Origin: Gemmatimonadota bacterium
GTDB lineage: Bacteria > Gemmatimonadota > Gemmatimonadetes > Palauibacterales > Palauibacteraceae
Direction of reading: 5' to 3'
Length of the DNA stretch: 64,000 bases
NCBI GenBank assembly: GCA_039588275.1
Contig: JBDHAC010000006.1
Location: 32,001 to 96,000 of the forward strand
Shown: positions 15 through 30,151 of the stretch, one piece after another
How positions within the stretch are numbered: the stretch's first letter is position 1
Layout of the letters: every line of letters starts with the position of its first letter
Notes under the pieces: model-generated
Told to the model about the DNA's origin: nothing
The model's input: only the letters and a program-made list of their open reading frames with translations
Database searches by the model: none
Program-made: the position numbers and the translations under genes

Positions 15-1361
15 TCAGCCGTACAGCGGCCGGTCCTCCTCCAGCCGCGCATCGACCTCTTCCCCCGGCGCCTCGATCAGCTCCAACAGCGGCCGGGGAT
101 CCTTCGGCTCGACACGCGCCAGCGTGAACACGCGGAATACCCGTGCCGCGTGGTGTAGCGAGCGACTCAAGCGCGGAAGATCGATGAGTCCCTTCTCTCC
201 CCTCGAGGTAAGCCGCTGAACGCCACCGTCCCGCCTCACGAGGAGGAGCCGCAGCTGAAGCATCTCGGGATAGCCGGGATAGTCGAGAATCACGTAGTCT
301 TCGGGTAGACCCCATTCATCTGCCAGACGAGCCTCCAGCCTCGCTACGAGCTTCGGGCGCTCCGCGACCCAGGACGAGACCCCGGCCGGCAGCGAGTCGC
401 CGAAGAGCTCTACCGCTCGCTTCGGAAGACGGCGATGTGTGAGCGAATCGAGAAGCAGAGCGATTCGCTCGAGCAGGACCCCGGGCGCCTCCGGATCCAC
501 CGAAAGCTCGACGCGGTGCGCCATCAAGCCGAGCAGTTCCTCGTCCGTCGGCCCGGCGAGCTCGTCCGCCGCCAGCAGACCCACTTCGAGCGCGGCTTCG
601 ATCAGCCTGCGGAACGTGGTTGTGGCGGCGCGAACGGCGTGGTGCCAGTAGACGTTCCGGAACATCTGGTACTTGGAGAACAGGAGCGACTCGAGCGCCG
701 AAAGACCCTTCTCCGTTACGCCCACCTCGAGCGGCGCGGTCTCCGACTCCCGCGCCAGGGTGAGCGAGTCGAGCAAGCGTTCGACGTCGACGGCTCCATA
801 CGGGACGCCGCAGAAGAAGCTGTCCCGCCTCAGGTAGTCGATCTTGTCCAGATCGAGCGACCCCGCCACCAGTCCCTGCAGCGGGTGGTCCGAATCCCCC
901 CGAATGAGCTCCGAGATGCGTGGAATCGCGTCCTCGCCGTGCACCGCCAGCGCCTCACGGATGGGCCCGGCGTCGAGGAAGCGGGCCGCGACCTCTTCAT
1001 GGTGCCCCGGGATGGAATCCGGTCCAAGCTCCTCCATCGCGTGCGAAAACGCGTAGTGACCCACGTCGTGGAGCAGCGCTGCGAGGCGCACGATCGGGAT
1101 CAGCGCGTGCTCCGCTTCGGTCAGCTTCGCCAGGTCGCCGGTCCGGCGCAGCGTCTCGATCGCGCGGGTCGTCAGGTGGTAGACGCCCAGAGCATGTAGG
1201 AAGCGCGAATGGACCGCGCCAGGATACGCGAGGTGGGCGAAGCCGAGCTGTTTGACCCGACGCAGTCGCTGGAACTCGGGCGTGTCCAGGATGGTGGCCG
1301 CATCCGGATCGACCGGGATGTTCTGCCAGACGGGGTCTCGAACCGTGCGCGTGCGTGTCAT
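15..1361 (-). CDS. HD-domain phosphohydrolase (SAMHD1/dNTP triphosphohydrolase-like)
   Basis: Motifs RDPV, FQRLRRVKQLG, HSRFLHALG, LLHDVGH, DLDKIDYLRRD and VYWH. Start placed at the ATG of MTRTRTVRDP (1361); the ORF is open to 1400. Confidence 0.88.
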   Translation of the reverse strand: MTRTRTVRDPVWQNIPVDPDAATILDTPEFQRLRRVKQLGFAHLAYPGAVHSRFLHALGVYHLTTRAIETLRRTGDLAKLTEAEHALIPIVRLAALLHDVGHYAFSHAMEELGPDSIPGHHEEVAARFLDAGPIREALAVHGEDAIPRISELIRGDSDHPLQGLVAGSLDLDKIDYLRRDSFFCGVPYGAVDVERLLDSLTLARESETAPLEVGVTEKGLSALESLLFSKYQMFRNVYWHHAVRAATTTFRRLIEAALEVGLLAADELAGPTDEELLGLMAHRVELSVDPEAPGVLLERIALLLDSLTHRRLPKRAVELFGDSLPAGVSSWVAERPKLVARLEARLADEWGLPEDYVILDYPGYPEMLQLRLLLVRRDGGVQRLTSRGEKGLIDLPRLSRSLHHAARVFRVFTLARVEPKDPRPLLELIEAPGEEVDARLEEDRPLYG

Positions 1362-29705: not shown

Positions 29706-29859
29706 CGTTCGTTCGTCATCGGTTGATTCTCTGCAAGCTCCCGTGGTCGGGCAAGCTGGCCCTCTCCGCGTCCGGATCGTGAGCCGAAGTCGGGACGGGG
29801 ACCGACATCGCTTGCCCGGGAGGCGACCGGGCTCCAGAATACGCGTCATACTACTGGCG

Positions 29860-30108
29860 CCCTATCGTGAAACCTTGTGAAAGGAGGTGATCCAGTGTCT
29901 GATGGGAGTAGACCGGGTCTAACTCGACACGGGCAAGCGATCGCCTCAGCGCAGGAGTAGCACACCGGACTCGGGAAAGTTGCGTTGAGTTGACCACACG
30001 CCGACCTGATCAGGAGCGAGCCCCGGCTGGGCATCGCGTCGAGTTAGGTCCGAACTGAACACGACGGCCGCAGGCGCGACACGAGCCTGCGGCCGTCGTG
30101 TATTCGAT
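29860..30108 (+). ncRNA. Candidate structured RNA / small-ORF leader with extended 16S-complementary tract
   Basis: GAAAGGAGGTGATCCAG at 29879-29895; helices 29915-29928/30038-30051, 29937-29941/30033-30037 and 29943-29950/30026-30032; terminal 17-bp hairpin; 21-codon ORF 29895-29960. Confidence 0.5.
30059..30101. terminator. 17-bp perfect hairpin (terminator/attenuator) upstream of dapF
   Basis: ACACGACGGCCGCAGGC (30059-30075) / GCCTGCGGCCGTCGTGT (30085-30101); U-tract is weak. Confidence 0.7.
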
Positions 30109-30151
30109 ATCCAGCGGAGCCGTGGTCGAGACCGCGGAAGGTTCAGGGTAC

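Follow-up and report, generated by a model that had tools for sequence, protein, structure and literature searches.

The element described here, from a contig of a Gemmatimonadota bacterium, is judged from its sequence to be an rre-type RNA outside the Alphaproteobacteria and a member of no Rfam family. It likely forms a stand-alone RNA gene of about 235–255 bases, in which a 17-nt complement of the 16S rRNA 3′ end runs into a GTG mini-ORF and is predicted to be hidden in one fold and freed in another. Positions refer to the window, the whole stretch of 64,000 nucleotides that was analysed, and lie on the forward strand unless stated otherwise. All features listed in a first-pass annotation of this DNA are present where it had placed them.

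The 16S-complementary tract

The tract (29879–29895), an extended Shine-Dalgarno sequence, is complementary at 17 of 17 positions to the 16S 3′ end of its own genome, which confirms the exact complement proposed in the first pass from the usual 16S tail. Within the 4.1-Mb assembly, the element and the 16S gene have the only two copies of the 17-mer, with 0.00025 occurrences expected. Its duplex with the 16S tail is computed at −31.0 kcal/mol, compared with −9.2 kcal/mol for the hexamer. With its last three bases, the tract would reach into the terminal 16S stem (helix 45), as the first pass had suggested, by pairing with the 3′ strand of that stem. The final tract base is the G of the start codon, and the ORF that the tract abuts (29895–29960) was correctly described; it comprises 21 codons and a TAG.

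The tracts of 32 homologs comprise 544 positions, of which 522 are Watson-Crick matches, 16 are G-U pairs, and 6 are mismatched, five of these at the first two positions. Co-variation between tract and 16S tail was not seen in 15 genomes, 14 of which have an identical tail; the single variant is uncompensated. An invariant GCCC box (29859–29862), present in 37 of 37 homologs, lies 14–18 nt 5′ of the tract. It could pair with an invariant GGGC bulge, with 4–6 bp only and with covariation impossible.

The tract alone is not diagnostic, and most of 112 matches in viral contigs precede ordinary genes. Eight of them are of the rreB or CC2171 type by peptide start and are likely host DNA; a phage version of the element was rejected on these grounds. 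One pattern match (L160, near 1503) lies inside a spacer of a CRISPR-like repeat array. The extended Shine-Dalgarno sites of Staphylococcus aureus (PMC13009471) also pair past the core sequence towards the start codon, but they add two pairs before normal genes, whereas the element has 17 bp before a structured mini-ORF.

Two mutually exclusive folds

The region 29845–30150 folds with z = −5.07, and none of 100 shuffles was as stable. Two folds were compared across 30 aligned homologs. The open fold consists of P1 (29915–29928 with 30038–30051, 14 bp), P2 (29937–29946 with 30029–30037), and the terminal hairpin. In this fold, 94.3% of cells are paired, compared with 28–42% when slid, and two-sided changes occur in 18 of 34 pairs, a level reached in 0 of 500 shuffles. 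The changes include 7 of the 14 pairs of P1. Pairing of the 3′ arms of P2 and P1 (30029–30051) would release the tract.

In the closed fold, the core of the tract (29884–29892) pairs with 29939–29947, and the start codon region (29896–29901) pairs with the GGGC box (29930–29936), which is bulged in the open state. About 97.8–99.3% of the closed-fold cells are paired; for the helix of the GGGC box and start region the value is 95.6%, with zero two-sided changes. The closed fold as a whole has a two-sided change in one pair only, and 4 of the 9 tract-helix pairs never vary. The changing pair joins an A of the tract to a U of the anti-tract in 54 and a G to a C in 16 of 79 distinct class members, never mixed, and the remaining 9 are without the box. 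This compensatory change is a single lineage event. Tract positions 2–5 are computed to be unpaired in the closed fold and positions 6–14 to be paired.

The switch segment (29937–29947) serves both structures. The folds are mutually exclusive, because both use 29939–29946. The 5′ part alone favours the closed fold in 27 of 30 homologs and the full length favours the open fold in 24 of 30, as taken from pair probabilities, since constrained energies were over-constrained in some rows. In four homologs, including that of this genome, the closed fold still prevails in the prediction for the full length; its probability here is 1.00. Of the long-range structure described in the first pass, the 14-bp helix is present, but the lowest-energy fold here pairs the tract with 29939–29947 instead; one of its two inner helices, P2, is conserved in relatives, and the other is not.

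An anti-tract inside the ORF pairs better than in shuffled sequences in 21 of 33 family members, 14 of 17 rreB-type, 28 of 62 CC2171-type, and 0 of 21 rreR-type loci. Shuffled ORFs also pair the tract often, with a median of 0.67 against 0.90 for the real ones. A built-in alternative partner for the 3′ arm was found in only 5 of 30 homologs and was rejected. The comparison shows that two exclusive pairings are conserved, one predicted to hide the tract and the other, which covaries well, to free it.

The mini-ORF and its peptide

The GTG frame stops after 19–24 codons in 35 of 35 homologs, 11–20 nt past the P2 arm; the count covers 35 of the 37 loci examined, as two were missed by the filter of the script. 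The other two frames stop at codons 17–25 in 12 of 35 and 0 of 35 homologs, and shuffled sequences do so in 12%. TAG, TAA, and TGA are all in use. A pN/pS of 0.96 was obtained from 20 distinct frame-matched sequences, in which variability at third positions does not exceed that at first and second positions. The peptide thus drifts while the ORF length and stop are kept, and the peptide conservation that the first pass had left to be checked is absent.

In this genus, one base is missing early in the ORF, and the invariant core is read in another frame. The family frame would continue here for 42 more codons; instead, a TAG of its own closes the ORF 12 nt after P2. An extra base is present in a second lineage (L380, L383–L385, L075), whose ORF again ends at 21 codons. 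These genomes are kin and are not independent. A functional peptide would nevertheless hardly account for two frameshifts that arose separately, each with its stop re-created. The constant stop interval, the pN/pS value, and the two frameshifted lineages together indicate, at the level of sequence comparison, that the position of the stop is selected and the peptide is not. A second Shine-Dalgarno sequence near the stop codon occurs in 9 of 35 homologs and is not general.

It is accordingly improbable that the element is an mRNA under tight repression whose product is a functional peptide of 21 residues. This reading would account for the presence of the ORF in all homologs, for the recurrence of an R-A-S-D-R motif in several families, and for the translation shown for rreB and for the Caulobacter ORF, as discussed below. 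The motif, however, is a reading of the invariant GGGC and anti-tract bases, which two lineages, that of this genome among them, read in a different frame, and the pN/pS of 0.96 speaks against the peptide as the selected product.

Transcription unit and gene neighbourhood

A likely −35 box, TTGCCC (29812–29817), and a likely −10 box, CAGAAT (29835–29840), are separated by a 17-nt spacer, and the position of the −10 box would place the transcription start near 29847. The motif TTG[C/A]NN-16..19-YANNNT, which was chosen after inspection, lies upstream of 33 of 36 homologs; it was found once on the reverse strand, and 1.2 occurrences are expected from shuffles. To this extent the promoter proposed in the first pass is supported. 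The 17-bp hairpin described there (30059–30101, with arms 30059–30075 and 30085–30101) is present, its pairs covary, with two-sided changes in 9 of 11, and it is likely a terminator. The U-run that follows it is weak in this genome and clearer in many relatives. A generic scan for sigma-70 promoters and terminators gave no sites and did not call the terminal hairpin.

RNA-library contigs of relatives, with lengths of 181, 179, and 199 nt, cover 29871–30049, 29878–30048, and 29871–30060, and their immediate flanks are bare (three runs from two studies). A 212-nt contig of another relative is similar, and a 647-nt contig from a fourth run continues past the element. Runs X5–X7 have no contig on the element, and all runs come from organisms other than this one. 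The element-limited contigs, which come without strand, ends, level, or a DNA control, are a weak hint of a small transcript.

The divergent neighbour of the element is a DUF1707 gene (PF08044; 29001–29706, reverse strand, with its start placed by inference at 29706), and gcvH (PF01597) lies beyond it. The dapF-mutY genes are downstream, with dapF (PF01678; 30153–30955) outside the element. In the 37 homolog loci, gcvH is divergently upstream in 25 and dapF is downstream in only 14, and the element is therefore independent of its downstream neighbour. This bears on the translation-coupled attenuator of dapF-mutY that the first pass had considered. The leader-like ORF, the two folds, and a hairpin ending 51 nt before dapF in this genome resemble such a device. 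Nevertheless, neither fold touches the terminal hairpin, there are zero conserved control codons, and the element keeps its own promoter and terminator whatever gene lies downstream. With dapF following in so few loci, the attenuator fails as an explanation and has very little probability.

Distribution

BLAST found matches in 28 of 36 genomes of the same family and in 8 of 24 other genomes of the same order, a few of them weak and off-target. A pattern search showed that 17 of 31 genomes with no match or a doubtful one carry the element. With a 19-nt pattern and two mismatches, a search of related genomes for the tract outside rRNA genes, as proposed in the first pass, finds the element widespread in the class (69 of 151 genomes, with two control matches); the locus of one of the 69, the unpublished genome G114, was left out. 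Among 29 further class loci, 28 have a TTG start and an ORF of 11–20 codons, and one is a long unrelated ORF. A strict pattern matches only 24 of 301 genomes of the phylum, because other families start with TTG.

The covariance model R1, built here, finds one copy in this genome. It scores same-order loci outside the alignment at 64–145 bits, TTG loci with a GGGC box at 42–92 bits, and alphaproteobacterial loci at 27–44 bits. The element was not found in the family genera g4, g9, g10, and g11 (nine genomes searched by pattern, four of them also by model; 70–95% complete). The Gemmatimonadota records L073 and L075 have the same body and a divergent gcvH.

In a scan of species genomes, 120 loci were obtained out of an estimated 4000 stretches. 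The ORF has 10–30 codons in 119 of them, with the stops TGA (49), TAA (36), and TAG (35). Five of the records are titled Gemmatimonadota or Gemmatimonadales and one Planctomycetaceae. In the phylum of the last, 16 of 201 genomes match (three controls), and 9 of the 16 have an ORF of 10–25 codons. The same phylum contains at least two distinct types of tract element with a short ORF of 10–19 codons (L315, L317, and L321–L323; L318–L320). In Alphaproteobacteria, 27 of 151 genomes match (one control), and 18 of the 20 loci read have a 21–32 codon ORF starting with ATG, GTG, or TTG. Three metagenome contigs (L356, L371, L373) carry a further type with an ATG start, 21 codons, an anti-tract, and a terminator. 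Records titled Hydrogenophaga (L137) and Parcubacteria (L142) carry Caulobacter-type elements; L137 falls in the Alphaproteobacteria sample, which shows that record titles can mislead. A search of the literature that was open outside subscription journals and bioRxiv supplements gave no report of such RNAs in Gemmatimonadota.

Relationship to known RNAs

rreB and rreR: The rre genes encode small mRNAs, namely rreB of Bradyrhizobiaceae with 14 codons and rreR of Rhodobacterales with 18 codons (Hahn et al., RNA Biol 14:1353, PMC5711450). According to this paper, rreB is 165 nt long; over 17 nt it is complementary to the 16S tail, and the last base of this stretch is the G of its GTG start. The RNA co-sediments with 30S and is weakly translated. 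Its half-life of 10 min becomes 37 min when the start codon is removed, and an ORF fragment of 60 nt is stable off the ribosome. The authors report similar genes in Alphaproteobacteria only and leave the function open (PMC5711450).

Positions 29879–29900, 22 bases, are identical to rreB, as read from the primer table of PMC5711450, and to the CC2171 consensus. The element resembles rreB and rreR in the 17-nt complement ending in the G of GTG, the short ORF with serine as the second codon, the single copy, a likely terminator of its own, and a predicted hairpin that hides most of the tract. In contrast, it belongs to another phylum, its body is unrelated and longer, and its peptide is not conserved, with frameshifts among family members. 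The element also has a long-range fold, supported by covariation, as a competitor of the hiding hairpin; such a fold is not described for rre in the available text. The 17-nt complement, the GTG at the tract end with a small ORF, and a predicted hairpin covering the tract except its 5′ bases are defining traits of the rre class, and all three occur here. The clade-specific 14- or 18-residue peptide and body that define the two subfamilies do not, as length, sequence, and body differ. By its sequence features, the element belongs to the rre class and to neither the rreB nor the rreR subfamily. The first pass could not assign it to a known family, which is right for Rfam at gathering score but not for the literature, where this very tract defines the rre class (PMC5711450). 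Elements of this kind are thus already described, and the refuting outcome named in the first pass has partly come about.

CC2171: Rfam at gathering score and ARAGORN found nothing in the window. At the locus, RF01867 (CC2171) scores 27 bits (E 0.0007) against a cut-off of 75, and the score is carried by the 22 identical 5′ bases. CC2171 and the element are identical in 5′ tract and start; both also have an anti-tract within the ORF and a long-range helix that closes before the terminator. The ORF of CC2171 has 21–30 codons, and the RNA is catalogued as a non-coding sRNA. In the supplements of PMC4117421 and PMC11724286, CC2171 lies between CC_2171 and CC_2172, and it is therefore identified with CCNA_R0051, of 193 nt. 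The triphosphate end of this RNA has been mapped, and its sequence includes CCNA_03965, an ORF mapped by ribosome profiling, whose chromosomal YFP fusion gives a band of the expected size (PMC4117421). CC2171 was also seen by Northern blot in Methylorubrum (10.1101/2022.01.24.477521).

The annotation of CCNA_03965 begins at a CTG that shares the frame of the GTG at the tract and precedes it by 18 nt (PMC4117421 Dataset S1); the annotated start is probably wrong. The ribosome density of this ORF in the same data is 0 in rich and 2049 RPKM in minimal medium with similar RNA, although a neighbouring small gene also has zeros and the difference may be noise. In the literature open outside subscription journals and bioRxiv supplements, a search found no link between CC2171 and rre and no follow-up of rre function.

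Ms_IGR-5: The consensus of RF02471 (Ms_IGR-5, Actinobacteria) opens with a similar anti-16S tract. It has zero match at this locus (cut-off 45 bits), and its body is different. One class member (L339:1493-1673) passes the Ms_IGR-5 cut-off with 50.7 bits, which links Ms_IGR-5 to the rre design. Papers present IGR-5 as validated and uncharacterised.

6S RNA: A divergent 6S-like RNA, another reading of the first pass, is the least probable of those considered. The open fold is rod-like and of similar size, and RF00013 finds no 6S RNA in this genome or five relatives, which by this model leaves the role unfilled. That search (G000, G002, G017, G031, G040, and G055, four of them single-contig; cut-off 46.4 bits) gave no 6S RNA at E 1, and the 6S RNA of this lineage, if any, is unrecognised by RF00013. 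However, RF00013 gives no score at the locus down to E 10, the Rfam search suggested in the first pass thus yielding zero families at gathering score in the window and zero 6S RNA at the locus. The ribosome site, start, and stop are conserved in the element, and the consensus fold is without a central bubble. In Bradyrhizobium, 6S and rreB are separate RNAs according to PMC5711450, and Caulobacter rings match both the 6S and the CC2171 models.

Proposed mechanism

The first reading of the first-pass annotation, an sRNA capturing 30S subunits, is the best of its three and matches the 30S co-sedimentation and weak translation of rreB (PMC5711450). A model in which the element acts as RNA and not via its peptide is, as a whole, slightly favoured over its alternatives taken together. 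Within it, docking on 30S combined with switching between the folds is the more secure part and is considered probable.

In this model, the nascent RNA would be born in the closed fold, which hides the 17-nt tract. The completed 3′ arm, or the 16S tail invading through the unpaired 5′ bases of the tract, would open the RNA, and the open fold would let the small ribosomal subunit dock very tightly. The long duplex (−31 kcal/mol) and the weak start codon would then hold the 30S subunit. An elongating ribosome would unwind P1 and P2 and stop 11–16 nt past the anti-tract, after which the RNA would close or decay; translation would reset or destroy the RNA because both 5′ arms lie inside the ORF. 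From this hold on 30S and removal by translation it follows in the model that the RNA would persist and accumulate on 30S when initiation is slow.

The purpose is the least certain step. The favoured suggestion is that the RNA may cap the 16S tail while a subunit is idle and so protect it, for instance from RNase R. This suggestion is tentative and judged rather unlikely to be correct. RNase R starts 30S degradation at the 16S tail, and a Shine-Dalgarno oligonucleotide protects 16S rRNA from it (PMC10901742). All 5 genomes searched encode RNase R. The enzyme is also present in G025, a genome where the element was not found, which counts against the capping purpose. The standard protector HPF occurs in 60 of 61 relatives; a loss of HPF in carriers was rejected for this reason, and the RNA is therefore no replacement for HPF here. 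For rreB, 20-fold overexpression left growth unaffected and ribosomes were far in excess of rreB (PMC5711450), which by analogy would argue against bulk sequestration. In 3 of the 5 genomes, the RNase R gene lies about 1.2–1.6 kb past the 16S 3′ end on the same strand (G000:C3:117124-119196 (L428); G017:C1:2150142; G031:C1:972124), which leaves no room for a 23S gene, and the rRNA genes look unlinked.

Alternatively, the element may be a base-pairing or protein-binding regulatory RNA whose amount or availability the ribosome gates. In that case, tract and mini-ORF would only determine its stability, and the conserved GGGC box or the body would act on another target. The decay of rreB depends on the start codon, a stable ORF fragment occurs off the ribosome (PMC5711450), and the GGGC and GCCC boxes are invariant across several families of the class, as such a role would predict. 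Against it, the GGGC box is already accounted for by its pairing with the start region, the bodies are entirely different between lineages with the tract constant, and the Caulobacter member CCNA_R0051 is barely enriched on Hfq (log2 0.45). This role is a minor possibility, about as doubtful as the capping purpose.

Significance

The element is single-copy and widespread in this class, and the rre design is extended to at least two more phyla. Since 2016 the rre genes have been without a known function, and they were read as small-protein mRNAs confined to Alphaproteobacteria. The comparison suggests that the peptide is incidental and that the ribosome site, the stop position, and the two exclusive folds are what is selected; this locus adds the frameshift evidence against the peptide and the covariation evidence for the two folds. 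Caulobacter CCNA_R0051 is a tractable member with existing strains and data, in which the question of RNA or peptide, and of its purpose, is directly testable. As a further and doubtful step, rreB, rreR, CC2171, Ms_IGR-5, and the element might form one multi-phylum class of self-gating 16S-tail caps against RNase R, removed by a round of translation when initiation resumes. If this were true, these RNAs would represent an RNA-based device for ribosome preservation, in which the mini-ORF would be the release mechanism and not a gene product.
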